A stretch of 64,000 nucleotides of DNA, from IMG/VR virus record IMGVR_UViG_3300045993_000918; one strand, 5' to 3'. The position numbers and the translations under genes are program-made. The notes under the pieces were generated by a model. The model searched no databases and was not told where the DNA came from. It worked only from the letters and a program-made list of their open reading frames with translations. This DNA comes from a virus. Below, piece after piece: positions 12,056 through 51,831 of the stretch (within the stretch, counting starts at the first letter, position 1; each line of letters begins with the position of its first letter).

Positions 12056-13635
12056 GCCGGGACCTCCTCCTGCATCGGCACGGCCGAGAGGCCCGGGGGC
12101 GCTGCCTCGATCGCGACCGGAGCCGGAGCGGATGTGGCGGCGAGCTGCTCCTGCAGCCCGGGCGGGAACGGACTGGCCGACTGGTTCGAGGTCTGCGCCT
12201 TCTTGAGCACCTCGGGCATGAGGAACATCAGCAGCGCCTGCGAGATCTCCTCCGGGATGATCGCCTTCTCGACTGCCATCCGCCAGGTGATCTCCTCCTC
12301 GGTCGGCGCGTCGTTGTCGCCGAACCCGTGCGCCGCGCGCCAGGCCTCGCCGGAGAGGATGTACTTCTCGTACCCGCTGTCGGCGTCGTTGCTGCGGTTC
12401 GGCCGGACGACGACCTCGGACGGGTCGTACCACACGACGATCCGGTTGACATCCTCGGTCTCGTAGCCCGCGGCGCGCAGCAGCGGCCGGAGGTAGATGT
12501 CCGTGATCGCGTCGCAGAACATCAGCGCCAGCGGCTCGATGTGCGCCTTGTACAGGCCCTCGTCGATCTGGATCGCGTTGCTGTATTTGACGTTGGCCAG
12601 ACCGGTCACGATGTCCTTCGGCACGTCGATCCCCTGCAGGATCCGCTCGAGCACGCGCTCAGCCCGGTTGACCAGCGCCTCGTCGCTGTCGCGGCTCAGC
12701 TGGATGTACGCGATCTTCTCACCCTGCTCGGCCGGACCGCGAACCAGCAGCGGGACAACGCTCGCGGCGCTGCCCTCGTCGCTGATCGGCTGGGTCATCG
12801 CGGCGACGAGCTCGACCTCGAACGGATCCTCGCCCTCGGTCTCCTCCTCCCCGGGTGTGCGGGCCGAGATCGAGAGCGAGTCGGGCACGAACAGCAGACC
12901 GGCGTTGAGCCGGGAGCGGGTCGTCGCCCGGATCATCCGGCTCAGCAGCAGCAGCTCCTCGCAGTCCCCGCGGAGCGCCTTCATCGAGCTGTCCGGGTCG
13001 GCGCTGAACCGCGGGTGCGCCCGCCAGATCCGGCCGATCGGGGTGTCCTTCGGGATGACCTTCTCCCGGGCGGTGCTGGTCGAGACCGAGGCCTTGAGCA
13101 CGATCCGCCCGGCGCTGTTGACCCGCAGCTCGTCGACGGACTTCACACTCCACCGGTTCTCGATGCACACGAGGTAGCACTCGCCCGGGACGCTCATGTT
13201 CAGGCCGTAGGAGCGCAGCATCGCCGGGATCCCGTCGCCCTGACTCAGCTGCTCCATGAAGCGCTGGGCGTCCTTCGCCAGCCTGGGGTCGATCGGAGTC
13301 AGGCCCTGCAGCGGGCCGTCGTCGGCGTACTGCCCCTCGCCTTTGACGCCCGCGGCATCCGTGACGTTCGTCGGCGGGGCGTCAGAGTTGAGCACGGCGG
13401 AGGCGACGAGACGCACCCGGCTCAGCACGTTCGCGACCAGACCAAACCCGAACTTGACCTCGCCGATCGCGTCGTAGTACGCCCAGGCCTCGGCCTGCCA
13501 CTCGGCGTTCGGGCCGCTCAGACGCTCGCGCATCTGCTCGGCCTCGCCCTTCTTCGAGAGCGAGACCTTCGCAGCCGACGCAGTCAGCGTGCGGGTCTGG
13601 TTGTACGGAGCGGCCCTAGGCCTTCCGAACACCAC
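12052..13635 (-). CDS. portal protein
   Basis: 527-aa track ORF downstream of the terminase genes. Size and composition typical of SPP1-type portals. Alternative start ATG 13533 (MRERLSG). Confidence 0.75.
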   Translation of the reverse strand: MVFGRPRAAPYNQTRTLTASAAKVSLSKKGEAEQMRERLSGPNAEWQAEAWAYYDAIGEVKFGFGLVANVLSRVRLVASAVLNSDAPPTNVTDAAGVKGEGQYADDGPLQGLTPIDPRLAKDAQRFMEQLSQGDGIPAMLRSYGLNMSVPGECYLVCIENRWSVKSVDELRVNSAGRIVLKASVSTSTAREKVIPKDTPIGRIWRAHPRFSADPDSSMKALRGDCEELLLLSRMIRATTRSRLNAGLLFVPDSLSISARTPGEEETEGEDPFEVELVAAMTQPISDEGSAASVVPLLVRGPAEQGEKIAYIQLSRDSDEALVNRAERVLERILQGIDVPKDIVTGLANVKYSNAIQIDEGLYKAHIEPLALMFCDAITDIYLRPLLRAAGYETEDVNRIVVWYDPSEVVVRPNRSNDADSGYEKYILSGEAWRAAHGFGDNDAPTEEEITWRMAVEKAIIPEEISQALLMFLMPEVLKKAQTSNQSASPFPPGLQEQLAATSAPAPVAIEAAPPGLSAVPMQEEVPA

Positions 13636-13924
13636 GCGTGACCACCGCCTCTGAGACGACCGACTGGACGTACGAAGTTGAGTTTACCACGGCGGTCGTT
13701 GCCGCGGCCAGAGCCAGAGCGTACCGCAACTTCGGGGGCACCAACCCCGTCGCCACGGCCAGCCCTGCCCACAGGCTGACGCAGTGCGGACACTCGAACC
13801 AGTATGCCAGCGGACTGTCCGGCCACCGCTCGTTGACTGCTTCGCGCGCCGGACGAGTGATCTCGTCCTGCGTGACCAGCCGAGCGATGCGCCAGACAGC
13901 CGCAGCGTCGATCAGGACGCCCAT
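13616..13924 (-). CDS. membrane protein, DUF1360-like
   Basis: 102 aa; RLVTQDEITRP...WFECPHCVSLWAG pattern plus hydrophobic C-terminal half. Confidence 0.6.
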   Translation of the reverse strand: MGVLIDAAAVWRIARLVTQDEITRPAREAVNERWPDSPLAYWFECPHCVSLWAGLAVATGLVPPKLRYALALAAATTAVVNSTSYVQSVVSEAVVTRGVRKA

Positions 13925-13927
13925 CGG

Positions 13928-14326
13928 TCAGGCGGCCAGCGAGAGACTACCCTGCCCGGCGGGAACCGGGACCACCTGGGTGCGGTTGAACATGGCCAAC
14001 GCGATAGCCGAGACGGCGATGATGGCCCCGGTCTGCTCAGAAGTGAGATGAGCTCCGAATCCGATCGCCAGTGCGATCACGGTGTCGAGCAGGCCCAGGA
14101 TCAACGATGCCAGGGTCTGGAGGGTGACGTAGGCGACGTAGACCGCAAGAGCCGCGGCAACGACACCGTTGATCAGACCGATCTGCTCTGGGCTCATCAC
14201 GGCCCAGAACGCGGTGACTGCGACGAGCGCTGCCTTGATGAACCCGGCGACCAGGGCCGGTTCCCTACCGAAGATCACGATGGGCTCTCCTTCAGTTGGC
14301 GGGGCGACGCGGATCGCCGCTCCCAT
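13928..14326 (-). CDS. multi-pass membrane protein (holin-like)
   Basis: 132 aa, 3-4 hydrophobic helices. Better SD (GAAGGAGAG) precedes an internal GTG at 14278, which is an alternative start. Confidence 0.6.
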   Translation of the reverse strand: MGAAIRVAPPTEGEPIVIFGREPALVAGFIKAALVAVTAFWAVMSPEQIGLINGVVAAALAVYVAYVTLQTLASLILGLLDTVIALAIGFGAHLTSEQTGAIIAVSAIALAMFNRTQVVPVPAGQGSLSLAA

Positions 14327-14354
14327 CTTACCGCTGATCGCGGTTGCTTTGGGC

Positions 14355-14906
14355 TCATCGCAGTGAGATGAGCACGGTCACGATGCCCAGGATGATGATA
14401 ACCAGCCCACCGAAGGCCGCCCACATCGCGTAGAGTCGGGCCTGCTGCGCGGCCTGGCCGCTGTCCTTGCCGGTGTTCTGGTCCATCCGCGAGGCCAAGA
14501 CGACGTAGCGCTCGTTGTTGACCAGCCGCTCGGCGTCGAAGCGCTCGAGCAGAGACTGGAAGCGGACCTCGGCCTCGGACCGAGACATGAGGGTGGCGGC
14601 CTGGTCCGCGAGCTGGCCGCGGAACTCGTTGACCGACTCGAAGCGCTTCTCACTCGACGCCTCCGACTTAGCCACGGCCTCCTTTGCCGACTCCAGGGCG
14701 GCCTGCACCGCCTTGTCGGCGGCGATGAACGCGGTCTGCATGGCAGTGGTCTGCGCGACGTAGGCAGCGTCGGTGGCCTTGGTCTGCGTCTCGTAGCGCT
14801 CGTTGAGCTGGTCGCGCAGGTCGTCGTGCTGTCGCTGCATGAACTGCAGCGCGGTGTCCACAGTCCACCCACTGGGCTGCTGCTCCGTCTCCCCGCTCAT
14901 CGTCAT
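14355..14906 (-). CDS. coiled-coil protein with C-terminal transmembrane anchor
   Basis: 183 aa; Gln/Ala/Glu-rich helical region then AFGGLVIIILGIVTVLISL; ATGA overlap with upstream stop. Confidence 0.65.
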   Translation of the reverse strand: MTMSGETEQQPSGWTVDTALQFMQRQHDDLRDQLNERYETQTKATDAAYVAQTTAMQTAFIAADKAVQAALESAKEAVAKSEASSEKRFESVNEFRGQLADQAATLMSRSEAEVRFQSLLERFDAERLVNNERYVVLASRMDQNTGKDSGQAAQQARLYAMWAAFGGLVIIILGIVTVLISLR

Positions 14907-19951: not shown

Positions 19952-19995
19952 GGTGGTGCTCCTCTCAGCCGGTGGGCGTGCCCCACCGTGCCCCA

Positions 19996-20024
19996 ATTCA
20001 ATCACGCCGTTGCCTTCGAGGCAA
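19996..20024 (-). promoter_or_regulatory. promoter: -35 TTGCCT inside palindrome TTGCCTCGAAGGCAA, 17 nt, TGA-TTGAAT
   Basis: Followed by hairpin GGTGGGGCACGCCCACC and CTGAGAGGAGCACCACC-ATG. Confidence 0.5.
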
Positions 20025-20034
20025 GCCGGGGTGC

Positions 20035-20700
20035 TCAAGGCGCGAGCAGCGGGTGCTCCGCCGAGGCGATCAGCTCGAACCCTTCCGGCCCGGCGCCGAT
20101 CGCCGGGAGCTCCGGGCGGTGCAGCCGGATCGGCTCGATCGAGGGCTCGACGGTGGCGAACCGCGGATCCTGCGGGAGCTGGATCAGCCAGCCGCGCTGA
20201 AGGTCGGCCAGCGTCTCGCGCAGCAGCCGGATGCCCATCGGGAAGAGCGCCTCGGCCCACAGGTCGCTGGGGGTCCAGCGCGGGTCGACGTGGCAGAAGT
20301 CCTGCTTCGCGATCGGGCCGGTGTCGACCCCGGCGTCGGCGTAGAACCAGGTGAACCCGGTGACCGGGTCGCCCATCCGGACGGTCCACTCGACGCTCGA
20401 GCGCCCACGGTGCCGCGGGAGCAGGGAGGGGTGCCCGACCAGCGCACCGAGCCGGGTCGCCGCTCGGCTGTCCTTCCCGATGTAGGCGTGACAGTGTGCC
20501 GCGACGATCAGGTCGGCCTGCACCATCTTTACCCAGGCCGGGTGGAGCTCCGGCGCCCAGCTGAGGCCGTGGCGACCCGCAGCGTCATGCAGCTTGTCGT
20601 CGAGCGGCGCGACCACGCCGACGACTGCGTGCCCGTCCTTGAGCACCTGCTCGAGCGCGGCGACGCCGAACGACTTCGTGCCTGCAACGATGACCCTCAT
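20035..20700 (-). CDS. formyltransferase (Fmt/PurN/ArnA-like N-terminal domain)
   Basis: MRVIVAGTKSFG...HPSLLPRHRGRSSVEW...DAGVDTGPI motifs; SD AAGAGGTAGGGG. Confidence 0.7.
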   Translation of the reverse strand: MRVIVAGTKSFGVAALEQVLKDGHAVVGVVAPLDDKLHDAAGRHGLSWAPELHPAWVKMVQADLIVAAHCHAYIGKDSRAATRLGALVGHPSLLPRHRGRSSVEWTVRMGDPVTGFTWFYADAGVDTGPIAKQDFCHVDPRWTPSDLWAEALFPMGIRLLRETLADLQRGWLIQLPQDPRFATVEPSIEPIRLHRPELPAIGAGPEGFELIASAEHPLLAP

Positions 20701-20705
20701 GACCC

Positions 20706-21233
20706 CTACCTCTTGTACCTGAACCCGGCGACGCTTCTCCAATGGCCTCCAAACTCCATCTTCAAGTCCTTGCTCACCCGGCTCCCGGCCCCGCCGATCA
20801 GCTTCTGGCTGACCTGGTGCCAGTCCGGGTTCCGACGCAGCGCAGCGCAGAGCGCGGGGTGCGCGGTGTGCATCAGCGTCGGGACGGGCGAGCCGATGAA
20901 GCCGTCGCCGAGGAACTCGCGCTCAGCCAGGTGGTTCAGGAACCGCAGGCCCACGCCAGCACCCTGCCACTCCGGGTGCGTCACCATCCGGCAGGCTCGG
21001 GCGATCCGACGCTGGCCCGCCCAGAACCCGCTCATCCCGAGGAAGACGACCGGGTCGCCGCTGACCGCCTCGAACCCGGTGTAGGCGGTGCTGAACGGCA
21101 TCGGCTTCGCGTCGTGGAGGTAGTGGTGGTAGCGCGCCCACTCGAACCATGGACCCCAGCCCGTCTCGACCACCTCGAGCACGATCGGCTCGCGCTGGAA
21201 GATCTCGGGCGCCGCGAGCACCAGCTGCGTCAT
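20706..21233 (-). CDS. GNAT-like acetyltransferase
   Basis: 175 aa; THPEWQGAGVGLRFLNHL (Q/RxxGxG-type acetyl-CoA loop); ATGA overlap with ATPase stop. Confidence 0.55.
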   Translation of the reverse strand: MTQLVLAAPEIFQREPIVLEVVETGWGPWFEWARYHHYLHDAKPMPFSTAYTGFEAVSGDPVVFLGMSGFWAGQRRIARACRMVTHPEWQGAGVGLRFLNHLAEREFLGDGFIGSPVPTLMHTAHPALCAALRRNPDWHQVSQKLIGGAGSRVSKDLKMEFGGHWRSVAGFRYKR

Positions 21234-22532: not shown

Positions 22533-22781
22533 CTACGACGACCGCGGTTGCACCAGGTCGACGTACCCGTCGCGGATGAGCATCGTGATGTTCGCGCACG
22601 AGGCGCAGGTGATCCGGTCGTGCACCGTCACAGGAGCCGGGACCAAGTCGGTCCGGATCCCGCATAGGGTGCGGCCAGCCCCCATGATCGAGACATGGAG
22701 CTGGCCGCGGTACCCATCCTGGAGGTAGATCGTCCCGACCGTAGGTCGGGCCATCTGCCCTGTCTTCGGTATCCTGCCCAT
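22533..22781 (-). CDS. hypothetical protein (82 aa)
   Basis: Track ORF, plausible composition, abuts upstream stop. Confidence 0.55.
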   Translation of the reverse strand: MGRIPKTGQMARPTVGTIYLQDGYRGQLHVSIMGAGRTLCGIRTDLVPAPVTVHDRITCASCANITMLIRDGYVDLVQPRSS

Positions 22782-23638
22782 TACCCGCCCGTGCTCCCGA
22801 ACCCACGTTCACCGCGACCGTCCCCGGGGACGGCGGCGAACTCCTCCGGCGTAGCCCAGCTTGCGAAGTACTGGTTCGCGACGAGGTCGTGGAGGATCAG
22901 CTGCGCAACGCGCTCGCCAGCCTCCAGTATCACCTGCGTCGGAGACAGGTTCCGGACTCCGGCGAACAGCGGCCCGCGGTACCCCTGGTCGATGACCCCG
23001 TCGGCGACGAGCAGGCCCTTCCGCCGCAGCGTCGAGCTCCGACCGGTGATCCGCGCCCAGACCCCGGGCGGGAGGGCCGCGCGGACGCCGCACGGGACGT
23101 CAACGAATGAGTCGTGCCGGACCACGGTGCGCTCCGCGACGTAGAGGTCGAAGGCAGCGTCGCCCTCGTAGGCCCGGGTCGGGAGCACCGCGTCCGGATA
23201 GTCCGGCTCGGCCATGAACCGGAGCGGCTCACCAGCCAGCGCGGCAGTCTGCTCCCCGACCCAGGCCGCGAGACCGGGGGCGGAGGCGGTGCTGAACGGG
23301 AACCGGCGGCAGTCGGTCGCCGACCAGAGGTTCCCGTCCGCGACCACGGCGACGGGCTTCAGCATCGAGCGGGCGGCCTCGATCTCGCGCCCGACCCCGA
23401 GCGTCGGGATCCCCGGCGGGAGCAGCGCGACGACCACGTCGGCGGACCGCAGCGCCTCACGGTTGACGCGCTCGAGCCGAGGGTCCGGGGAGACCTGCGG
23501 GTGGACCAGGAACGCGCGCTCCGGACGGTAGACCAGGTGCTCCTGGAACCGAAGCTCGGAATCGATCTCGTCGAGGACGTGGTGCCAGCCGTCATCCTCT
23601 CCGGACCGGTCGACGGGTCGCGCCCTGTAGACGAACAT
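22781..23638 (-). CDS. fusion: nucleoside 2-deoxyribosyltransferase-like domain + trimeric dUTPase/dCTP deaminase-fold domain
   Basis: N-terminal ADVVVALLPPGIPTLGVGREIEAARSMLKPV (NDT/Rcl-like pattern). C-terminal GVIDQGYRGPLFAGVRN...GERVAQLIL...GERGFGSTG (dUTPase motifs). Confidence 0.65.
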   Translation of the reverse strand: MFVYRARPVDRSGEDDGWHHVLDEIDSELRFQEHLVYRPERAFLVHPQVSPDPRLERVNREALRSADVVVALLPPGIPTLGVGREIEAARSMLKPVAVVADGNLWSATDCRRFPFSTASAPGLAAWVGEQTAALAGEPLRFMAEPDYPDAVLPTRAYEGDAAFDLYVAERTVVRHDSFVDVPCGVRAALPPGVWARITGRSSTLRRKGLLVADGVIDQGYRGPLFAGVRNLSPTQVILEAGERVAQLILHDLVANQYFASWATPEEFAAVPGDGRGERGFGSTGG

Positions 23639-25261: not shown

Positions 25262-26340
25262 AGCCAGGCCGATGGGTTGTAGACGCTCATCGTGTTCGGG
25301 CCCGTACCGACCAGCGCGACCGGCGCGGCAGCCTCGATCGCGATCGTGTCGAGGAAGTCGCGGTGCGTCTCCTTGAACTCGTCCGGCCGGGCATCACGCA
25401 GCTCCGGGTACTTCTGGTCGAGCATCGAGAGCGCGAGCACGACGTCGCGGCTCGGGCCGCCGTTCGCGCGCACCGCCTGGCTGACCCAGTCGGCGTCCCA
25501 GTCCCCGACGCGACGCACCTTCTTCGTCACCGTGGTCAGCTCCTCGGGCAGCCCGAGCGCCTCCCAGGTCGTCTCGGACGCGAGGTATCCGCTGTTGCCC
25601 GCGACGCGGATCGGATAGACCCGCACGACGACCACGACGCGGACCCGGCTCACGCCCTCGGCCCACGGGCTGACCCCGGCCATCGAGAGGAAGTCGATCG
25701 CCCGGCAGTCCGCCGTGGTGCACTTCGGGTAGTGCCCGGCGTGCAGCCCGAGCTGGTAGCCCTGGACGCCCTCGATCACGACGTGCCAGCCCTCGCTCAG
25801 GCGCCGGGAGAGCAGCGCCGCGGTGTTGACCACCCGGCCGGGCACCCCGCCGTTGACGGCGAAGTCGCCGATCAGCCGGGCGCCGCGCAGCATCCGGTCC
25901 GCCCGAGCGGCGCCGACGCCCTTCGCCGTCGAACCGATCGCCTTGTGCAGGTCGAGCGCAGCCTCGGTGTCCTTGTGCTTCTGCTCGATCACCGTCGACT
26001 CCGGGTCGACCCAGAGCCGATCCGCGATCCGGTGCCCGGCGGCCTCGAGCTCGGAGACCTCGGACCGGAGCACGTCGAGGTCGATCTCGGACCCGGCGGC
26101 GATCACCAGCGCGGCGTTCGGGTTGACGAAGCTGACGGGCACGTGCCGGAGTGGCCAGGCGCGGCCGGAGTCGTCGTAGACCGTGTGCCCAGCCTGGCTC
26201 CCCCCGACCCGCACCCCGACATGCGGGGTCTTCGAGCTCGCGTCCTCGTAGGCGAGGAAGCCGGTCGCGGCCCCCTTCGCCTCCGAGCCCGCCTGGCCGC
26301 CTACCACCACGGTGATCAGGCCCTGTCGTGAGATGGTCAT
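25258..26340 (-). CDS. purZ: short adenylosuccinate synthetase homologue, PurZ candidate
   Basis: 360 aa. Aligns by eye to PurA: GGQAGSEAKGA vs GDEGKGK P-loop (Asp to Ser), GGSQAGHTV, IGSTAKGVG, IEGVQGYQLG..GHYP, TTVTKKVRRVGDWD, VGTGPN. SD AGGAGGA. Confidence 0.7.
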   Translation of the reverse strand: MTISRQGLITVVVGGQAGSEAKGAATGFLAYEDASSKTPHVGVRVGGSQAGHTVYDDSGRAWPLRHVPVSFVNPNAALVIAAGSEIDLDVLRSEVSELEAAGHRIADRLWVDPESTVIEQKHKDTEAALDLHKAIGSTAKGVGAARADRMLRGARLIGDFAVNGGVPGRVVNTAALLSRRLSEGWHVVIEGVQGYQLGLHAGHYPKCTTADCRAIDFLSMAGVSPWAEGVSRVRVVVVVRVYPIRVAGNSGYLASETTWEALGLPEELTTVTKKVRRVGDWDADWVSQAVRANGGPSRDVVLALSMLDQKYPELRDARPDEFKETHRDFLDTIAIEAAAPVALVGTGPNTMSVYNPSAWL

Positions 26341-26371
26341 CAGTCCTCCTGCTAGGGGCGGTCGGGAACAG

Positions 26372-26406
26372 CCCGGCCCGGCCCCAATCGTAGCAGCCGG
26401 GCCGGG
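26372..26406 (-). promoter_or_regulatory. perfect 11-bp stem-loop in purZ leader
   Basis: cccggcccggc / gccgggccggg arms, 13-nt loop, about 30 nt upstream of ATG 26340. Confidence 0.6.
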
Positions 26407-26417
26407 ACTCTAGCTCG

Positions 26418-26426
26418 AGGCTACCA
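26418..26426 (-). promoter_or_regulatory. extended -10 TGGTAGCCT upstream of purZ candidate
   Basis: Overlaps the stop of the upstream gene. Transcript would begin just before the 11-bp hairpin at 26372..26406. Confidence 0.35.
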
Positions 26427-27020
26427 GCACTGCTTCGGCGGGTAGCTCCAGTTCGAGCGCCCCTTGCCACCAGCGAAGAGCTTGTAGAACGCGGCGTCCT
26501 GGATCGCGCTCGAGTAGTCCTTCGCCGAGCCGGGCAGGCCGGTCACGGCCCGCCAGGTCGAGTCGATGAACTGGTACGCGCCAGACGCACTCGAGTAGCG
26601 ATTCTGCGCCCGGTAGTTCCCGTGGCTCTCCCGGGCAACGATGCAGCGCCGGACCGCCTCGACCCAGGCCGAGCCGCGCGCCGCTGGCGGCAGCGCCTTC
26701 GGCTTCTGGACGACCTTCTTCTTCTGCTGGACGACCGCCTCCTTGACCGCGGGCCTCGGAGCGGCCTTCTTCGCCGCGGGCGCGACCACGGCCACCCGCG
26801 TGGTCGTTCGCGAGGCGGGCGGTGCGAGCCGCAGGCGGGCGACCGGGTCCGGCACGAGGTCCGGGGACGCCCCGTCGTACACCACGTTGGGGGTCTCGGC
26901 GGCCTGAGCGACCTGGGTCGGGCCGTCGGGCCCGAGGGCCGCCCCGAGAACGACGAAAGCCCCGGCGACTGCGATCGCGGCCAGGGCCTTCGGGGAGCGA
27001 ACAGAGCTGTGTACCTTCAC
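26421..27020 (-). CDS. secreted peptidoglycan hydrolase, Rpf/transglycosylase-like C-terminal domain
   Basis: GTG 27020 after GAGGAAGAGG. N-terminal signal/TM ALAAIAVAGAFVVLGAA. C-terminal CIVARESHGNYRAQNRYSSASGAYQFIDSTW. Confidence 0.65.
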   Translation of the reverse strand: MKVHSSVRSPKALAAIAVAGAFVVLGAALGPDGPTQVAQAAETPNVVYDGASPDLVPDPVARLRLAPPASRTTTRVAVVAPAAKKAAPRPAVKEAVVQQKKKVVQKPKALPPAARGSAWVEAVRRCIVARESHGNYRAQNRYSSASGAYQFIDSTWRAVTGLPGSAKDYSSAIQDAAFYKLFAGGKGRSNWSYPPKQCW

Positions 27021-27200
27021 TTCGACCTCTTCCTCGTGGCCGACGCTGACCCTGAGGCACGGTCCCGCGAGGTACCGCGCCCGGTTCGAATGCTCGCGTT
27101 CACGATGAGCAGAGATGGGCCAGCGTCGACGTGCGAGGGTGGCCGGTCGGTTGACCGACCACCGCCGAACCCGCGGTAGCAAGCCCGCGGGGACTCACCC

Positions 27201-27209
27201 AGCCTACCA
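27201..27209 (-). promoter_or_regulatory. extended -10 TGGTAGGCT
   Basis: Starts the leader of about 175 nt for the Rpf-like gene. Confidence 0.4.
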
Positions 27210-27222
27210 CAGGCCGGGCGAC

Positions 27223-27498
27223 TCAGGCACCAGGGACGACCCCGGCCCCCGCGCACGGCCACGAGTTCCGGACGCTCGAGCCCACGCGGTGCGACCCGAC
27301 CGAGCCGTCCACCCGGAGGTTGACCTCCGCGCCGCATACCGGACACGCGATCGTCGGCGACCCGCTCCGGCCCGAGGACAGGTTCCGGACCGTGCTGAGC
27401 TCGGTGTTCGGCTTCCCGATGAGCGCGGTGCCGCCCCCGGCTGCGCGTCCGCCGCGCCCCTTGCCCCGGTTCCCGTACCGCCCCGGCTTACTCGACAT
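27223..27498 (-). CDS. small zinc-ribbon protein (91 aa)
   Basis: Track ORF. ACPVCGAEVNLRVDGSVGSHRV...PC is paralogous to 33599..33751. Confidence 0.5.
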   Translation of the reverse strand: MSSKPGRYGNRGKGRGGRAAGGGTALIGKPNTELSTVRNLSSGRSGSPTIACPVCGAEVNLRVDGSVGSHRVGSSVRNSWPCAGAGVVPGA

Positions 27499-29563: not shown

Positions 29564-30021
29564 GTCCCCGCCTCCGTCGTCGGCTCAGCCGGGGCGCGAC
29601 GGATGTCCGCTGCCATCTGCGTCCGCACGCGGGCCTCGATGAGCGGGAGGACGGCGGCTACGGCGAGTGCGGCGAACTTCTCCCGCTCGTGGAGGTGCAG
29701 CGGACCCTCACTGACCTCGGAGTCGGCCATCGCCTCGCTCGCAGCCCGCACGATCGCCTCGTCGGAGATGTTCTCGCTGACGAGACGACGGCCGTGCCGT
29801 TCGATCGCGGCCAGGTGGTTCAGGAAGTCGGGGTGCGACGAGAAGGTGATGCCGCACTCCACACACTTGACTGGGCGGTACTCCACTACGGCTCGGTCGG
29901 TGGTCGGTGCGGGAGCGACGTAGGAGGGGCAGGCGCAACCTTCCTTGAAGCATTGAGGCCCTGCGGAGAAGTGCTGATACTTGTCGTGCGCGCAGTTGGC
30001 GCAGGCTCGGTCGGTGGTCAC
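29560..30021 (-). CDS. zinc-finger hypothetical protein (153 aa)
   Basis: Track ORF; CANCAHDKYQH...CFKEGCAC...CVECG. Confidence 0.65.
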   Translation of the reverse strand: MTTDRACANCAHDKYQHFSAGPQCFKEGCACPSYVAPAPTTDRAVVEYRPVKCVECGITFSSHPDFLNHLAAIERHGRRLVSENISDEAIVRAASEAMADSEVSEGPLHLHEREKFAALAVAAVLPLIEARVRTQMAADIRRAPAEPTTEAGT

Positions 30022-32009
30022 TTCTCGAACCCGCTCTCATCGCAGCTGCCGGGGATCCCGAAGTGCTCGAGCCAGGACTCGGCGGTCATCGCCTTGATCT
30101 GCGCGACGATCTCGTCGGCCTCGTCCTCGCGGAGGTCCAGGAGGACGGAGTCGTGGACGGTCAGCACCAGGGCCTCCTGCGGGGCGGTGAGCCGCTCGAC
30201 CATCGGGAGCCAGACGTTCCCGACCCAGCGCGCGAGGCTGCCCTGGACCCGGCGGTTCCAGGCCGTGTTCGGGTAGTCGGTCGGGCCGCCCATCCAGCTG
30301 AACGTCCCATCGTAGAGCGGCACCCGCTTGTTGACCTGCGCGTAGTCGCTCCAGCTCTCGTACTCAACGCCGAACTCCGGGTAGGACGCGCGCCAGGCCA
30401 CCACAGCGTCGCGGCAGCGCGAGAGCTCCCACTTGACCCCGGCGAGCTGCATCAGCGTCGCCTGGAACCGCGGCGCGCCGATCATGAAGATCGAGCCGAA
30501 GGTCAGCCGCTTCGCGATATCCCGGTACTCGCTCCAGCCCTCGTCGCCGGGGTGCAGCCCGAAGACCTGCGTGGTGGTCCGGCCGTGGAAGTCGGCCCCC
30601 TCGGCGAGGTCGGTGACCATGGGCTTGCAGTCCGCGAGCTGCGCAGCGATCCGGAGCTCAGCCTGCGCGAGGTCGAGGTTGACCCGCCGACGGCCCTCCG
30701 GCACGCCGAAGAGGCTGCGCGGCTCCGGCAGCACGTCCCCGAGCAGCGTGATCCCCGTGTGCTTCGGCAGCGCCTGCGCCTGGAACCGCTCGACGCTCAT
30801 CCGCCCCGACTTGACCCAGGCCTGGCGGAAGGACGTGCGCAGCCGACGGTCCGGTCCGGCGAGCTCCGCGTAGTTCCGGTAGAACATCCGGTTCGCCATC
30901 GTGAGGTCGACGAACTCCGCGTACTCGGCCGCGCCCGGCACGCCCTGGGCCGCCATCCGGCGCGAGACGTCAACGGTCAGCGTGCCCTGCTTCTCGACCT
31001 TCGTCTCGCCGGGCTTCTTGAGGTTCGGCGCGAGTACGCGGCGCTCCTCGCCCGGCTCCCACGGCGCGAGCCCGAGCTCGTCGAAGAAGTACGCCGTCGC
31101 GACCGTCGCAGTGGCCGGGGAGAACGGGAGCGCCGTCGCGAGGTCCGCGATCCGGGCCTCGACCCGGTCCGCGATCGCAGCGGAGCGCTCGACCTCGTAC
31201 GGCCCGAGGCCGCGGCGCTCGATCCGGTACAGGATCCGGGCCAGCCGGACCGCCGCGGCGTACTCCTCGTACGGCAGCTCGCCAGAGTCGATCCGCTCCA
31301 TCTGGAGCTCATGGAGCCGGAGCGCGAGCACCGCGTCAGCGAAGACGTACGGCCCGAGGATCTCCCACGGCACGAGGTCGTAGCGGGGCCCGTGCTCGGC
31401 CCGGAGCCCGTAGCGCTTCTTCACGTCGATCAGCGCCTGCCTCTGGTCGGCGGCCTCCTCGACCGCCTCAGCTCCCCAGTACCTCGCCGCGGTCGGCTTC
31501 AGCGACGTGGTCCCGGCGGTCGGGTCGAGCACGCTCGTGCCCAGCATCGTGTCGTAGAGCTTCCCGGCCGGGATGTACGGCTCGATGTCGACACCGCACC
31601 AGCCCCAGGGCGCCCCGCCGCGGAGCATGTGCATGTCGAACTTGACGTTCTGGTTGACGTACCCGACGCGGCTCACGGCGCGTACGATCCAGTCCAGCAG
31701 GTAGTCCCACTCCTCACGGGGGAGGTTCGGCTGCGGGTCCTCCCAGCTGTCGTTGCCCCCGCGGGCGGCGCCGGACTTGAGTCGCTGGACCGAGAAGCCC
31801 TTCCGGGCGGAGTCCCCGACGTCGAACGGGAAACCGTGCGCCTGGATGAAGCCGGGGTCGTCGGAGCGGCGGTAGGCCAGGCCGCCCGCGACGGTGTAGG
31901 CGCCGTCGTCGACGAACAGCCCGGTCGTCTCCAGGTCGGCGCACAGCGGCCCGACGAGCAGCTCCGGGTCGGGCAGGACCATGCTGGGAAGCTCGAGTTC
32001 GAAGGTCAT
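30018..32009 (-). CDS. family A DNA polymerase with 3'-5' exonuclease domain (DpoZ candidate)
   Basis: Exo I CADLETTG; motif A NLDLAQAELRIAA; motif B RDIAKRLTFGSIFMIG; motif C VLTVHDSVLLD. ATG 6 nt downstream of TGGTAGGCT. Confidence 0.85.
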   Translation of the reverse strand: MTFELELPSMVLPDPELLVGPLCADLETTGLFVDDGAYTVAGGLAYRRSDDPGFIQAHGFPFDVGDSARKGFSVQRLKSGAARGGNDSWEDPQPNLPREEWDYLLDWIVRAVSRVGYVNQNVKFDMHMLRGGAPWGWCGVDIEPYIPAGKLYDTMLGTSVLDPTAGTTSLKPTAARYWGAEAVEEAADQRQALIDVKKRYGLRAEHGPRYDLVPWEILGPYVFADAVLALRLHELQMERIDSGELPYEEYAAAVRLARILYRIERRGLGPYEVERSAAIADRVEARIADLATALPFSPATATVATAYFFDELGLAPWEPGEERRVLAPNLKKPGETKVEKQGTLTVDVSRRMAAQGVPGAAEYAEFVDLTMANRMFYRNYAELAGPDRRLRTSFRQAWVKSGRMSVERFQAQALPKHTGITLLGDVLPEPRSLFGVPEGRRRVNLDLAQAELRIAAQLADCKPMVTDLAEGADFHGRTTTQVFGLHPGDEGWSEYRDIAKRLTFGSIFMIGAPRFQATLMQLAGVKWELSRCRDAVVAWRASYPEFGVEYESWSDYAQVNKRVPLYDGTFSWMGGPTDYPNTAWNRRVQGSLARWVGNVWLPMVERLTAPQEALVLTVHDSVLLDLREDEADEIVAQIKAMTAESWLEHFGIPGSCDESGFEK

Positions 32010-32015
32010 GGGACC

Positions 32016-32024
32016 AGCCTACCA
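32016..32024 (-). promoter_or_regulatory. extended -10 TGGTAGGCT, leaderless DNA polymerase start
   Basis: 6 nt upstream of ATG 32009. Confidence 0.45.
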
Positions 32025-35906: not shown

Positions 35907-36085
35907 GCGGTCGCCCTCCAGGTCGCCGCGATCGCGCCGCGCAGCCACTCCGCTGCGCAGGACTCCGCCTCGTACGGGGACCAGTCGTCGGCCAGGAGCT
36001 TGGCTCGGAGTCCCTTCGCCGCCTCTAGGATCGGGTCCAGCTGCTCCATCGCGGTGACCAGGGCCTCGGCCAGTTCGTCGCTCAC
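35903..36085 (-). CDS. small helical protein (60 aa)
   Basis: GTGA overlap with purB stop; MSDELAEALVTAMEQL... Confidence 0.45.
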   Translation of the reverse strand: MSDELAEALVTAMEQLDPILEAAKGLRAKLLADDWSPYEAESCAAEWLRGAIAATWRATA

Positions 36086-37278
36086 GACGAGCCCTCCTCG
36101 TCGGCCACGGAGGCCTCTTTCGTCGCCTCGGGGGCACCGGTGGGTCCTGGCCCCCGACCGGCCCCTCGCCCGACCTCGTAGGCGGCTTCGTGGCTCATCC
36201 CGTCGGCGACCCGACGCCACAGCTCGGCTGGGCTCTCCGGGATCCGGGCGAGGTTCGCCTCGCAGACCCGGGCGTCGACGGTCAGACCGCGAGCGACGTT
36301 CGTCGCCTCGACCAGGCAGTACGCCGTGAGTCCGACCAGCTGGGGGACCACGACCCGCTCGACGCTGCTCGCGGAGAGGTCGCGCTGGTCCCACCAGACG
36401 ACGTTGGCGTCGAGCGCCCCCGCTAGTGCCCGCGTGACGCGCTCGAGCCCACAGATCCGCTCGGACCGAGTCGGGTTCTGCTTGAACGCCATGCTCGAGC
36501 TCCCGACGTAGCGCGAGACTCCGGTCGGCTCGAAGAGCTCACCGTCGCGGGCCCCGAGCCGGACCTGTAGCGCGAAGTGCGCCGCGGCGGTCGCGAGGTC
36601 GGCGACGCTCCGGCCCCACCGCGCGATCTGGTCCCGCCGGACAGCCTGCTCCGAGTGCGACTCGAGCACGACTCCGAGCATACCGGAGGCCCGTACGGCA
36701 GCCTGCCGACTGAACGTCTCGTACCGCCCCGTCGGACCGCCGAGGCTGGCCCGGAGCCCGGCGGTGGCGTCGAAGAGCTCCATCCTGGCGCCGAGCACCC
36801 GGGCGGCCCAGGCCTGGCCCTGGACCGAGAGGTACGAGGCCTCCGCGAGCTGGCCGTGCGTCCTAGAGGCCCGCGCCACCGAGGGCAGCGCTTCGAGCGT
36901 CTGACCGAGCGTCCCAGCCTCTGCCCCGAGCCAGGAGGCCGCGGAGTGCAGCGTCATCACCAGGCTCGTGTCGACCAGATTCGAGGACGTGAGCCCGAAG
37001 TGGACCCAGTCCCGGGTATCGGACGCGACGACTTCGCGGACCACGGAGAGGAACGCAGCGACGTCGTGCCCGAGCTCAGCCTCCCTCTGGGCCATCACGA
37101 CGAAGTCGGTCTCGTTGAACCGGTCCGGGACCGTGTCAGGCTCGACCGAGCTCGGGACCAGCCCGTGGGCCCGGGCAGCCCGGAGCACCTCGCGGCTCAC
37201 GGCCAGCCACCCCGCAGCGGTCGCCTCGGCGGAGAACAGGTCCTCGACCCACTGGACAGAGTAGCGATCGGTCGTCAT
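36082..37278 (-). CDS. purB: adenylosuccinate lyase
   Basis: Fumarate-lyase signature GSSSMAFKQNPTRSE, WVHFGLTSSNLVDTSL, RTHGQLAE, WWDQRDLSASSVER. Collinear by eye with bacterial PurB. ATG 7 nt downstream of TGGTAGACT. Confidence 0.85.
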   Translation of the reverse strand: MTTDRYSVQWVEDLFSAEATAAGWLAVSREVLRAARAHGLVPSSVEPDTVPDRFNETDFVVMAQREAELGHDVAAFLSVVREVVASDTRDWVHFGLTSSNLVDTSLVMTLHSAASWLGAEAGTLGQTLEALPSVARASRTHGQLAEASYLSVQGQAWAARVLGARMELFDATAGLRASLGGPTGRYETFSRQAAVRASGMLGVVLESHSEQAVRRDQIARWGRSVADLATAAAHFALQVRLGARDGELFEPTGVSRYVGSSSMAFKQNPTRSERICGLERVTRALAGALDANVVWWDQRDLSASSVERVVVPQLVGLTAYCLVEATNVARGLTVDARVCEANLARIPESPAELWRRVADGMSHEAAYEVGRGAGRGPGPTGAPEATKEASVADEEGSS

Positions 37279-38137: not shown

Positions 38138-41083
38138 TCAGCCGCCCGCGACGACGGTCCGAGCGTGCTTCGTCAGCACCCGGTACTCCGCCATGCCGCC
38201 CTTGTACCGAGCGACGTAGCGGACCGGCTTCCCGTCCTCGTCGGCCACGCACAGAGCCGAGATCTGGTTCTCGATCGCGTTCTTCGCGACGTTCCTCACG
38301 TCGTCACTCACCCCTGCCCTCCGCCCCTCGTCCGAGGTCGCCCAGAGGTAGAGCTCGCGCCCTCGCACGGCCACCATCAGCGTCTCCGCCTCCTCCGGGT
38401 TGACCAGCCCCGAGGCTACGATCCGGATCACGGGCGGAGCCTTCGTCCGCACCACCTCGGTCCCTCCGACCGTCCGGGCGTCGAAGCCCTCTTGGCAGGC
38501 TCGCCCCAGCAGCGTCGAGGGCGAGACCTCGTCCTCCAGCACCTTCTGCCACTCGGCCTTCGTCACTGTGAACGCCTTCGTCGCACTCGCGCTGGCCAGC
38601 GCTCGAGGCAGCAGCTCCGTGGCTGCGTAGGTGTCCAGCCCGGCGTATGCCAGCTCCCGCGAGAGCGCCTCGCGCTCGGCCGCCTCCCTCGCGACCGTAG
38701 CCTCGATCAGGTCCGCCTCTTCGTCGTACCCCCACACCCTCAGCCAGTCAGCCAGCACTACCGCTCCGACCCGCAGGAACCGGCCTACCCGGGCCTCACG
38801 CGCTCCCGTGGGCGCTCCGACCCGGTCGTCCCACGCGACCCCTCGGCTCGCCTTCCACAGCCCGCGGACGACCCAGCCCGCGTAGTCGGTCAGGATCTCG
38901 TGGTCGTAGAGGTCGCCCGCCCCCAGCTTCAGCATGTCGTCCCACTGCGGACGAGAAGGGTCCTTCCGGCTCATCCGGTCCTGCGCCCGCTCCGTGAACT
39001 CCACCGAGACCATCCGGTCGCGCATCGCCTTCTCCTCGCCACGCGACTCCGCCTCCGCCGAGATCACGATCAGCGCCTCGCTCTTCTGCTCGATCGTCGC
39101 GCTGTCGGTGTCGGCCTTCGCCCTGACCCTCCCGCCCCCGGTTGCAGCTCCGCGGATCGCGGAGAGGATCTCCTCCATCGCGGGTCCGGCCTCGTCGTCG
39201 AGCCAGTACGGCCCGGTCCCCGTTGCGACGTCCCGGCCGAATGCGGCCACCGTCGTGTTCGACTGGCCGTACCCCAGCGACCCGAACGCCCTCAGCGCCA
39301 GCCGCAGGTACGTCGTCTTCCCTGTGTTCGAGAGTCCGTGCACGCTCACCACTCGCAGCATCCCGGCTACGGCGTCCGTGACCGGCCGCACCGTGTTCGC
39401 GGCCAGCGCCGCGAGCAGCACGCACGACTCCTCGGGCCGCCTGAACCACACGAGCTCGGCGACCTGCCGAGCAGCCACGGACTCGCCTGACTCCTCGCCC
39501 TCCGGAGCGCCCAACCCGTACCGCCACAGCTCGCGGGTCCGATCGGCCCGGATCGCCTGCCCCGTACCGATCACGGCCCCTTCGTAGCCCGCGAAGTGCC
39601 ACTCCCGGTCCTGCTGGTTCCAGCCGCAGACGGGCCGGACCATCGTCGGGGTCAGCCGCCCGCTGTGGTGCCGCAGCCAGGTCGAGATCGAAGGTACTCC
39701 GCCGTTCCGCCCGCCCAGCAGCTGCAGCGCCCCACCGGTCGGGACGGCGACCTTCCCGGCCCAGCTCTGCGCCGACGCGATCGCGGCGGCCTCGATCCGG
39801 AACGTCCGGAGCTCACCGGTCTCGACCTCGGCCCACTCGACGCTCCAGGCTGCGTGCGTCCCTTCGGGGTCGACCTCGACGCCGACGACCTCGGGTGCGA
39901 CCGCGAGCACGGGCACGAGCGTGAACCCGGCCATCGCGTCGAGCGGCTCCCCGCCTCCCTCCTTCGCCTTCGCGCGCCCACGCGTGACGTGACAGAGCAC
40001 GGCGTGCGTCGAGTCCGGCGGGACGGTCGTGACCAGCATGCCGGTCTGGACGGAGAACTCGCCGTACGGGTCCTCGGCCTCGAGGTCCTCGTCCGTGACC
40101 TCCCCGACCACCATCCGCTCGCGCCACTTCAGCCCGTAGAAGTCGACGGCCTGCGCGAGGTCCCTCGCACGCTCCGGCGGGTACAGGATCTCGACGCTGC
40201 TCCCGCCTGCGATCAGCGAGGGTCCCACGGCCCCGACGATCCGCGCTACGCGCCTCCGCCCAGCGGGGTCGTTGTCCCCGACTACGACGACCCGGACCAC
40301 CCGCCCGACGCAGAGCTCCGCCACGGCGTTCGCGATCCGCTCGACGTCCTCGTTCGCCCCGCCTCCGGCGGTGGTCGCGATCCGGCCCTCAGCTCCGGCG
40401 ACGGGTTTCTTCGCAGCCTTGTCCGCCTCGAACTGGAGTTGGGCGAAGTACGCGTCCTTCTCGCCCTCGGTGAGCCAGAGCTCGGCCCCGCCCGCGGCTG
40501 CCCAGGCCCGGAGCTCCGGCCCGCGCCACAGCGGCTCGAGCTCGTACTCGCCCCTCCCGGGCTCCCAGGCGTCCTTCCCGACGTAGTGCTTCCAGATGAA
40601 CTTCGCGCCCTCGGTGAGCCGGTACTCCCGGACGTGCGCAGCAACGATCGCGTCGGCGCGGCCCTCCTCCTCGACCCCGCACCAGTGGTACTCGGTGCTC
40701 ATCGGGGAGAGCTGGTACATCTGGAGCTCGAGCGCGGCCACGACCTCGGTGGTCTCGCACGAGGCCTGGCACTTGACCAGCACCCGGCCGTCCGGGGTCA
40801 CGCTCCAGCGCAGCGACTCGACCCGGTCGTCGTGGGCTGGGCAGGTCACCGTGTAGTTCCCGCTCAGGTCCGGGCGCCCCATCGCGATCCCGCGCAGCCC
40901 TAGCGCCCGGACCCAGACCGCCTCCGGCTCCTGGCCGATCCGCCGTACGTAGGCCTCGACCCGTTCGCCCGCAGGCAACGGGGCCGCTTCGTCGCCCTCG
41001 GACGCGCTCCCGGGCCGATCGGACCCGGACCCTCCGTCTGTGCTCGTCGTTAGGCCTTCGTTGCCCTCGTCCGGGTCCGACAC
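38138..41083 (-). CDS. DNA primase-helicase (zinc finger + Toprim + P-loop helicase)
   Basis: CPAHDDRVESL...CQASC zinc motif. Toprim LWLTEGEKDA and VVVVGDNDPAGRR. Walker A GLSNTGKTT. GTG after GAGAGGAGCGGGGC. Confidence 0.85.
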   Translation of the reverse strand: MSDPDEGNEGLTTSTDGGSGSDRPGSASEGDEAAPLPAGERVEAYVRRIGQEPEAVWVRALGLRGIAMGRPDLSGNYTVTCPAHDDRVESLRWSVTPDGRVLVKCQASCETTEVVAALELQMYQLSPMSTEYHWCGVEEEGRADAIVAAHVREYRLTEGAKFIWKHYVGKDAWEPGRGEYELEPLWRGPELRAWAAAGGAELWLTEGEKDAYFAQLQFEADKAAKKPVAGAEGRIATTAGGGANEDVERIANAVAELCVGRVVRVVVVGDNDPAGRRRVARIVGAVGPSLIAGGSSVEILYPPERARDLAQAVDFYGLKWRERMVVGEVTDEDLEAEDPYGEFSVQTGMLVTTVPPDSTHAVLCHVTRGRAKAKEGGGEPLDAMAGFTLVPVLAVAPEVVGVEVDPEGTHAAWSVEWAEVETGELRTFRIEAAAIASAQSWAGKVAVPTGGALQLLGGRNGGVPSISTWLRHHSGRLTPTMVRPVCGWNQQDREWHFAGYEGAVIGTGQAIRADRTRELWRYGLGAPEGEESGESVAARQVAELVWFRRPEESCVLLAALAANTVRPVTDAVAGMLRVVSVHGLSNTGKTTYLRLALRAFGSLGYGQSNTTVAAFGRDVATGTGPYWLDDEAGPAMEEILSAIRGAATGGGRVRAKADTDSATIEQKSEALIVISAEAESRGEEKAMRDRMVSVEFTERAQDRMSRKDPSRPQWDDMLKLGAGDLYDHEILTDYAGWVVRGLWKASRGVAWDDRVGAPTGAREARVGRFLRVGAVVLADWLRVWGYDEEADLIEATVAREAAEREALSRELAYAGLDTYAATELLPRALASASATKAFTVTKAEWQKVLEDEVSPSTLLGRACQEGFDARTVGGTEVVRTKAPPVIRIVASGLVNPEEAETLMVAVRGRELYLWATSDEGRRAGVSDDVRNVAKNAIENQISALCVADEDGKPVRYVARYKGGMAEYRVLTKHARTVVAGG

Positions 41084-45043: not shown

Positions 45044-45300
45044 TGTCCGCCCCTGTCCGGTCCGCGGGTCTCTCCGTACCCGACGTCCTCCTTGTCCAGG
45101 AAGATCGTGGTGAAGCGCCGACCCCGCTCTGGGCTGGCCGGGTACAGCGCCCTGAACCCCCAACCGTCCGGGACGGTCAGGATCAGCGTCTCGCCGTCGT
45201 CGACCAGCTTCAACTCAGCTCGGCCGCGCTCGAGCGAGAGCGCGATCACTGCCCTCGGCTCGGGCTCGGCCTCGACGATGGCCGTCCTGTCCTCGCTCAT
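45040..45300 (-). CDS. hypothetical protein (86 aa)
   Basis: Track ORF. Confidence 0.6.
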   Translation of the reverse strand: MSEDRTAIVEAEPEPRAVIALSLERGRAELKLVDDGETLILTVPDGWGFRALYPASPERGRRFTTIFLDKEDVGYGETRGPDRGGQ

Positions 45301-45851
45301 CTCTGTCCTCTCGTGTTGCGCCGGAGCGGTACGCCCAGCGTGCGTCTTAGCTGGCTCAGTGCGTTCAGTAGGGAGCGGTGGTCGCTGGCCGTGACGGGCA
45401 GCGTCACCAGCCGGTCGCCGTTCGAGTTCGAGACGGCTAGGTGCTTCCCGCCCTGCTCAACCTCGAACCCGTCGGCTCGTAGCATCGTGATGAGCTCCTC
45501 CCAGCTCGTCGGGTTCAGGTTCCCCGCCCCACCTCGCCCCCGGGCGACCCCGGTCGTGTTCTTCGCGACCTCGGCCTTCCTCGCGGCCGTCTCCGCCCGG
45601 GCCTCGTCCATCTGGTCCGGCGTGCGCACCCGGAACCCGACGACGATGTCCAGCGTGGACAGCACCGCGGTGACGTGGCCGTCGTGGACCTGCAGCCCGC
45701 CGAACGGGTGGTCGTGCGGGGTCGAGTGGTACGAGCCGCGTCTGCTCCGGTGTCGGAGCGCGAGCGCCGCTACCTCGTCGGCGATCCCGTCGCGGATCGC
45801 TCGGTCTAGTACGGACGGCGCCCACGGGACGCCTCCGTGCCAGGCGCTCAT
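45297..45851 (-). CDS. protein with C-terminal HicA-like domain
   Basis: C-terminal SWEELITMLRADGFEVEQGGKHLAVSNSNGDRLVTLPV...SLLNALSQLRR resembles the HicA/YcfA pattern (GF..., G-x-H, tvP). Confidence 0.5.
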   Translation of the reverse strand: MSAWHGGVPWAPSVLDRAIRDGIADEVAALALRHRSRRGSYHSTPHDHPFGGLQVHDGHVTAVLSTLDIVVGFRVRTPDQMDEARAETAARKAEVAKNTTGVARGRGGAGNLNPTSWEELITMLRADGFEVEQGGKHLAVSNSNGDRLVTLPVTASDHRSLLNALSQLRRTLGVPLRRNTRGQR

Positions 45852-51673: not shown

Positions 51674-51831
51674 GTCGGGTCCTCGATCGCGTCCTCGGAC
51701 GCGGCGGTGTGCTGCTCGCCCCACTGGTCCGCGCGGGCACGCGTCTGCGTGGGCACGGAGGCCCAGCCGCAGGCGCAGGTGGCGACGAACAGGCCGTCGT
51801 GGCCGCGCTTGGTGACCGCGTTGTGCTTCAT
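51664..51831 (-). CDS. small protein (55 aa)
   Basis: Tail of track ORF 51664..52035; MKHNAVTKRGHDGLFVATCACGW... Confidence 0.45.
   Translation of the reverse strand: MKHNAVTKRGHDGLFVATCACGWASVPTQTRARADQWGEQHTAASEDAIEDPTCL

Follow-up and report, generated by a model that had tools for sequence, protein, structure and literature searches.

A candidate Z-preferring DNA polymerase of the DpoZ type from a deep, uncultured branch of the Wayne-type phage lineage

The viral stretch IMGVR_UViG_3300045993_000918 of IMG/VR (64,000 nucleotides, analysed in full and hereafter called the window) encodes a family A DNA polymerase of 663 amino acids, P0001, which we consider likely to be of the DpoZ type, that is, a polymerase preferring 2-aminoadenine (Z) over adenine. 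The gene is intact, its catalytic residues and fold are present, and both its placement in phylogenetic trees and its synteny with genes for PurZ0 and DmtZ-DutZ hold. It consists of a single open frame on the minus strand, from an ATG at 32009 to a stop at 30018, with a GC content at third codon positions (GC3) of 0.96, which is typical for the real genes of this window of 70% GC, nearly all of them on the minus strand. Because of an in-frame TAG at 32021-32019, no start further upstream is possible for this open reading frame (ORF). The initial annotation had the polymerase span 30018-32024; its stop was correct, but its other end is the first base of a non-coding, promoter-like element.

Pfam DNA_pol_A (PF00476) and the PHROGs family phrog_17, 'DNA polymerase', matched P0001 at 2e-25 and 1e-58, respectively. 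In a phmmer alignment to the Klenow fragment, DLAQAELR of motif A corresponds to DYSQIELR, RDIAKRLTFGSIF of motif B to RRSAKAINFGLIY, and VHD of motif C to VHD. The residues of Exo I, II and III and of motifs A, B and C all fall in conserved columns in alignments with the PolA of D29 and Amok, and D25/E27, D125 and Y221/D225 are invariant across 47 relatives. The Pfam exonuclease model PF01612 gave no match on P0001, so that the exonuclease domain is supported by the alignment of its motifs and by the fold prediction. With 47 relatives as input, AlphaFold2 gave a model with a pLDDT of 94.2 and a pTM of 0.91, whose top Foldseek matches were Klenow structures (1kfs and 1d8y; E = 2e-24), with approximately 680 aligned columns covering the exonuclease and polymerase domains together. 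At the level of alignment and structural model, P0001 is confirmed as an intact proofreading PolA of two domains that lacks a 5' nuclease domain and has a Klenow-like predicted fold. The motifs A, B, C and Exo I that had been recognized by eye are thus all borne out, and Exo II and Exo III are intact as well.

The window is phage DNA, with genes for a tape-measure protein, a tail fibre, an endolysin, a helicase, a terminase and a portal, and a megablast of 18 kb against phages returned no match. Downstream of the polymerase, on the same strand, lie genes for PurZ (at 3.7 kb) and a DmtZ-DutZ fusion (at 6.4 kb), placing the polymerase near PurZ0 and DutZ/DmtZ in the same phage (Table 1). The P-loop of this PurZ reads GSEAKG vs GDEGKG in PurA, an Asp-to-Ser change typical of PurZ, and the protein is 45-52% identical to actinophage PurZ. 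The fusion corresponds to gp53 of phage Wayne (PMC12884076), with which it aligns end to end at 34% identity (E = 1e-44). Homologues of the PurB-like lyase also occur in Ghobes, Galactica and the loci L023/L024, and the gene order primase, PolA, PurZ0, DmtZ-DutZ is the same in Wayne and in most relatives examined. Published surveys found the DpoZ-1 clade to coincide with the PolI enzymes of PurZ0 phages, and Z genomes are present in cultured phages with this set of genes (PMC12884076). We infer that the virion DNA of the window's phage contains Z. It is very unlikely that P0001 is instead an ordinary phage PolA in a phage with ATGC DNA, the PurZ-like cluster being non-functional or having another role. 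The sequence itself is silent on base modification; PurZ is intact, passes its curated model and has the Ser signature, the genes for PurB, DmtZ-DutZ and PolA are intact too and keep their synteny in many relatives, and the Z genomes of cultured phages with the same genes argue in the same direction.

Table 1. Positions in the window of the polymerase gene, its motifs and associated features.
Feature	Position	Strand	Basis or remarks
Family A DNA polymerase with 3'-5' proofreading domain (P0001, 663 aa; DpoZ-type candidate)	30018..32009	-	Pfam, PHROGs, NCBIfam, trees, fold
3'-5' exonuclease domain (approximately residues 18-245; limits approximate): Exo I D25/E27, Exo II D125, Exo III Y221/D225	31275..31958	-	Alignment columns and fold
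Exo I triplet DLE	31929-31937	-	Verified in sequence
Motif A DLAQAELR (D446, steric-gate E451; Ala455 directly after)	30651..30674	-	phmmer alignment to Klenow fragment
Motif B (O-helix) RDIAKRLTFGSIF: R496, K500, B3 = F504, B4 = F508	30486..30524	-	phmmer alignment to Klenow fragment and multiple alignments
Motif C TVHDSV (H619, D620)	30144..30161	-	phmmer alignment to Klenow fragment
Extended -10-like element TGGTAGGCT, ending 6 nt before the polymerase ATG	32016..32024	-	Sequence pattern
Primase/helicase-like replication protein	38138..41083	-	Upstream of polymerase, as Wayne gp45
PurB-like adenylosuccinate lyase	36082..37278	-	TIGR00928, 199 bits, under that model's cut-off
PurZ (PurZ0 type), 360 aa	25258..26340	-	NF038379, 315 bits vs cut-off 300; phrog_1211, 2e-80
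DmtZ-DutZ fusion, 285 aa: NDT-like N-terminus and dUTPase-fold C-terminus	22781..23638	-	Pfam dUTPase, 6e-22; weak Nuc_deoxyrib_tr match

The best NCBIfam model for P0001 was phage_DpoZ_2 (NF038381, Wayne-type) at 308.1 bits, the next PolA model scoring 90 bits. In a tblastn search of 50,697 phage records, the best cultured matches were the Gordonia phages Sapo, Frizzle and Ghobes (33-34% identity), followed by the Arthrobacter Wayne cluster, Microbacterium and Curtobacterium phages and Streptomyces JackieB-like phages (approximately 30-31%), each match covering 97-100% of the length; beyond these, scores dropped abruptly to canonical PolA such as that of Amok (approximately 24% identity, E ~1e-13). 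The closest proteins in a search of 5.8 billion were the metagenome proteins P0002 and P0003, 84% and 78% identical, and the same search returned about 45 further uncultured relatives at 40-57% identity, some of them with inteins. One relative, at 38% identity, carries the name DpoZ at NCBI. As a separate observation, the metagenome relatives P0018, P0019, P0025, P0042 and P0097 are approximately 1000-1050 aa long, and LAGLIDADG (PF14528) matches in P0018, P0019 and P0097 indicate inteins in this polymerase family, while the window copy has none.

For the phylogeny, PolA relatives with up to 10 kb of flanking DNA were gathered from IMG/VR (80 loci), JGI metagenomes (80) and GTDB genomes (10), to which Wayne, D29, JackieB, Galactica, VP5, Amok and Parvaparticeps were added. 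A single-protein scan of IMG/VR gave distant matches only, and alignment-based scans were needed to recover the relatives. Trees were built with FastTree (161 rows) and with IQ-TREE under LG+C20 (72 rows). Both recovered a superclade with 100% support that comprises Wayne, Ghobes, all relatives at 29-51% identity and P0001, and both left D29, Amok, VP5 and the weak matches outside it. Clustering with non-Z phage PolA, part of the outcome that the initial annotation had named as speaking against a DpoZ, was not seen for the canonical enzymes, D29 and Amok lying outside the superclade; of the two characterized types proposed there for comparison, P0001 groups with that of Wayne and not with that of phiVC8. 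Within the superclade it belongs to a 99%-supported subclade of uncultured sequences that is sister to the Wayne and Ghobes clade. Among the subclade relatives, L009 (51%), L094 (46%), L012/L013, L014/L017 and L015 have PurZ downstream of the polymerase and on its strand, as do the Actinomycetota contigs L174 and L175 from metagenome-assembled genomes, both absent from the trees; a DutZ homologue usually follows PurZ in those relatives. Since the PurZ linkage extends to L059 and L034, two basal lineages of the superclade, it is most simply read as ancestral there, with three state changes under parsimony and at least 3 losses.

The only marker common to both DpoZ clades is a Tyr-to-Phe change at motif B position B4, Klenow Y766 (PMC8599892, PMC10201439). 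P0001 has Phe at B4 (Phe508) and at B3 (Phe504). The B4 Phe is also the one feature that would speak for a phiVC8-type DpoZ (NCBIfam DpoZ_1, NF038380, PDB 7PBK), an assignment that we rejected and regard as exceedingly improbable: P0001 scored 35.3 bits on NF038380 against a cut-off of 500, no 7PBK chain appeared among the PDB sequence matches at E <= 1e-3, B3 is Phe504 here vs Leu in phiVC8-type enzymes (Leu in VP5), the VP5 PolA falls outside the superclade, and the partner genes are DutZ and DmtZ, not DatZ and MazZ.

Several points nonetheless weigh against a Z preference of P0001. Its 308.1 bits miss the curated NF038381 cut-off of 350, and the score fails to separate PurZ-linked from PurZ-less relatives: beside Wayne at 1145 and Amok at 81, the PurZ-less JackieB and L036 scored 333 and 298 and the PurZ-linked L012, L009 and L015 scored 332, 331 and 298, an overlap at 298-333 bits for which we rejected the score as a discriminator of Z use. 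P0001 is only about 30% identical to the enzyme of Wayne, the sole biochemically characterized member of the lineage, and it does not fall inside the crown group of cultured, characterized DpoZ. Moreover, the superclade includes nested polymerases of phages that have no PurZ. The Streptomyces phage JackieB (L089; PolA at 11974-13986, gp61) has a complete genome with neither PurZ nor DutZ, the PurZ-less L047, L052, L050 and L036 come from records estimated to be 91-100% complete, and the phages noted as having neither PurZ nor DutZ are JackieB, L047, L052, L050, L036-L045 and L049-L055, some of them with complete genomes. The Wayne and Ghobes clade itself contains PurZ-less members, and L010/L011, inside the inner clade of P0001, are without PurZ (record estimated to be 72% complete). 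PurZ has been lost repeatedly in the superclade while the polymerase stayed. Phe at B4 is kept in the PurZ-less JackieB, L047, L050 and L052, and in L011, and the PurZ-linked Galactica has Tyr, on which grounds B4 Phe was rejected as a specific Z marker. A PurZ-linked locus, L110, has Gly rather than Ala at position 455, considered below, and the residues that set Z selectivity have not been established even for phiVC8 DpoZ (PMC8599892). Since PurZ-less relatives with the same scores and the same Phe nest among them, clustering with DpoZ does not establish discrimination between Z and A, and clade membership together with B4 Phe appears to be necessary but not sufficient evidence of Z selectivity. 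The proposal of a DpoZ candidate in the initial annotation thus stands as far as the Wayne-type superclade, the B4 Phe and the synteny with PurZ0 and DmtZ-DutZ are concerned, and is tempered by the position in a sister subclade, by 308 bits where 350 are asked for and by the nested PurZ-less relatives.

Galactica, a Streptomyces phage (L090), pairs a Z-type gene set with an atypical polymerase. Its PolA (12476-14848, 790 aa) forms a long, unplaced branch of the superclade, has Tyr at B4 and scored 202 bits on NF038381; PurZ (19995-21125), which is the closest to that of the window among cultured phages (51%), a PurB-like gene (25844-27229) and a Dut-like gene accompany it.

We also scanned for columns that are at least 93% conserved among PurZ-linked polymerases and changed in PurZ-less lineages. 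At position 455, which comes just after motif A (Klenow M714 when counted from D705; codon at window 30645-30647), Ala is present in 30 of 30 PurZ-linked sequences, or 34 of 35 in a further count, and Gly in all 4 PurZ-less lineages. Position 501, beside the O-helix Lys (codon at window 30507-30509), is Arg or Lys in PurZ-linked sequences and Val, Asn or Met in 3 of the 4 PurZ-less lineages. At B3/B4, the PurZ-less L036 group has Leu/Tyr, and JackieB-like polymerases keep Phe at B4. When random sets of four PurZ-linked sequences were drawn 500 times, a four-of-four column arose in 0.6% of draws. Added loci mostly fit the pattern at 455, L110 being the one exception, which weakens Ala455 as a strict marker; an independent-pairs test of this position found only 3 independent contrasts, too few for significance. 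At least three losses of PurZ have occurred, and in every PurZ-less lineage position 455 changed independently from Ala to Gly, often with loss of Arg501 as well. P0001 is in the PurZ-linked state at F124, A455, R501 and F508, a residue set that is supportive of Z use, not decisive. By the same residues, the metagenome group P0033-P0041 (Gly455, Gln501, Tyr508) is predicted to be without PurZ; P0028, P0043 and P0047 also have Gly455. Positions 455, 501 and 508 may therefore track Z use. That Ala455, Arg501 and Phe508 are real determinants of the preference for Z over A in Wayne-type DpoZ, with the P0001 subclade as a third, deep DpoZ lineage, seems to us doubtful; if it were true, the superclade would constitute a natural experiment and the Ala455/Arg501/Phe508 set of P0001 would offer directly testable specificity positions.

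Taken together, these data would be accounted for if the ORF were the replicative family A polymerase of an uncultured, high-GC actinophage with tail genes of the long-tailed-phage type. Such a phage would follow the PurZ0 route to Z DNA: dZMP would be made from dGMP by PurZ0 and the phage's own PurB-like lyase, while DmtZ-DutZ would deplete dATP and dAMP. Genome replication would fall to the polymerase, which would insert dZTP opposite T and proofread the product with its intact 3'-5' exonuclease. P0001 would descend from the same PurZ-linked ancestor as Wayne DpoZ and has kept Phe at B4, Ala455 and Arg501; on account of this shared ancestry and of the kept residues it would most likely share the Z-over-A preference of Wayne DpoZ and, like it, disfavour A. 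A preference for Z has been reported for Wayne DpoZ (Pezo et al. 2021, as cited in PMC10201439 and PMC12884076), and that of phiVC8 DpoZ has been explained by A:T termini being backtracked and excised more easily than Z:T termini (PMC8599892).

Yet Z genomes can do without a selective polymerase, as is shown by S-2L, a cyanophage in which DatZ and a non-selective PrimPol are sufficient (PMC10201439). P0001 may likewise be a replicative PolA that simply accepts dZTP without selecting for it, adenine being excluded by DmtZ-DutZ pool editing alone, through destruction of dATP and dAMP. We regard this as the main alternative, although an unlikely one. The presence of the DmtZ-DutZ fusion in the window is consistent with it, as is the missed DpoZ_2 cut-off, and the PurZ-less JackieB-type polymerases, nearly alike down to the B4 Phe, indicate that the scaffold works with ordinary dATP. 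On the other hand, Wayne DpoZ, with the reported Z preference cited above, comes from the same superclade and has the same gene neighbourhood, and P0001 keeps Ala455, Arg501 and Phe508, which several PurZ-less lineages changed independently. Given the overlapping scores and the Phe shared with PurZ-less relatives, sequence alone cannot prove Z selectivity, and the gene context carries most of the argument. P0001 behaves like a DpoZ in the in-silico tests, yet lies under the curated model threshold, and we infer that it does itself discriminate Z from A.

The element upstream of the polymerase has counterparts in the window. The same TGNTANNNT-spacer-start pattern occurs upstream of purB (37278), of a ParB-like gene (22494) and of starts at 51831, 29332 and 16558, all on the minus strand. 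At each of these starts and at that of the polymerase, a TG(G/A)TANNNT element stands 5-8 nt ahead of the start codon; no such element-spacer-start pattern was found on the plus strand of the window. Leaderless mRNAs occur in actinobacteria. The element before the polymerase is probably its own promoter, giving a leaderless mRNA, and the recurrence of TG(G/A)TANNNT suggests a family of promoters for such mRNAs. Elsewhere, the window encodes a phage glycosyltransferase (55109-56476, minus strand; phrog_13126, beta-1,4-glycosyltransferase, 4.5e-99) between the tail and lysis genes, and, in the early region, a 184-aa ORF (45297-45851, minus strand) whose C-terminus is a HicA-toxin-like domain; a HicA-like gene is also found near the JackieB polymerase (L089, 11176-11475).

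To our knowledge, no natural polymerases other than the DpoZ enzymes are shifted towards a non-canonical base pair, and these enzymes serve to make Z-DNA. With P0001, the Wayne-type lineage extends into a deep branch of exclusively uncultured sequences, which is missed by the current NCBI model, and automatic annotation would therefore give it as a plain 'DNA polymerase I'. Conversely, the PurZ-less polymerases inside the 'DpoZ' clade call for caution in naming a DpoZ from phylogeny or B4 Phe alone. Positions 455, 501 and 508 are the few candidates that possibly track Z use and are open to mutagenesis.

P0001 is similar to the Wayne-like DpoZ enzymes (DpoZ-1; Wayne gp47 and Gordonia phage Ghobes gp39) in its exonuclease and polymerase architecture without a 5' nuclease, in its fully supported (100%) superclade, in Phe at both B3 and B4, in the gene order primase, PolA, PurZ0, DmtZ-DutZ and in hosts from the Actinomycetota. 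It differs from them in its identity of only 30-34%, in belonging to a wholly uncultured sister subclade (closest metagenome proteins at 84% and 78%), in its score of 308 bits, below 350, and in its length of 663 aa vs 697 aa for Wayne gp47. The PurZ-less PolA enzymes (JackieB gp61, L036, L047, L050 and L052) resemble it in identity (approximately 30-31%) and in NF038381 scores of 298-333, and those of JackieB, L047, L050 and L052 also in the B4 Phe; unlike P0001, they come from genomes without PurZ and DutZ and have Gly at 455, and the L036 group has reverted to Leu/Tyr at B3/B4. With the phiVC8-like DpoZ (7PBK, NF038380), an enzyme with an active exonuclease from a Z-genome phage, P0001 has in common the family A assignment and the B4 Phe, whereas that enzyme belongs to an unrelated PolA subfamily with Leu at B3, three specific insertions and DatZ and MazZ as partners. 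D29-like mycobacteriophage PolA and the E. coli Klenow fragment share the Klenow-type fold and all catalytic motifs, but are only about 23% identical, have Tyr at B4, serve ATGC genomes and lie outside the superclade in both trees. The two DpoZ lineages and their gene contexts have already been published (PMC10201439, PMC12884076), and validation of further DpoZ homologues from metagenomes is already under way (bioRxiv 10.1101/2025.10.22.683976). Judged by its relationships, P0001 adds a deep-branching member to the Wayne-type lineage and is not a new system.

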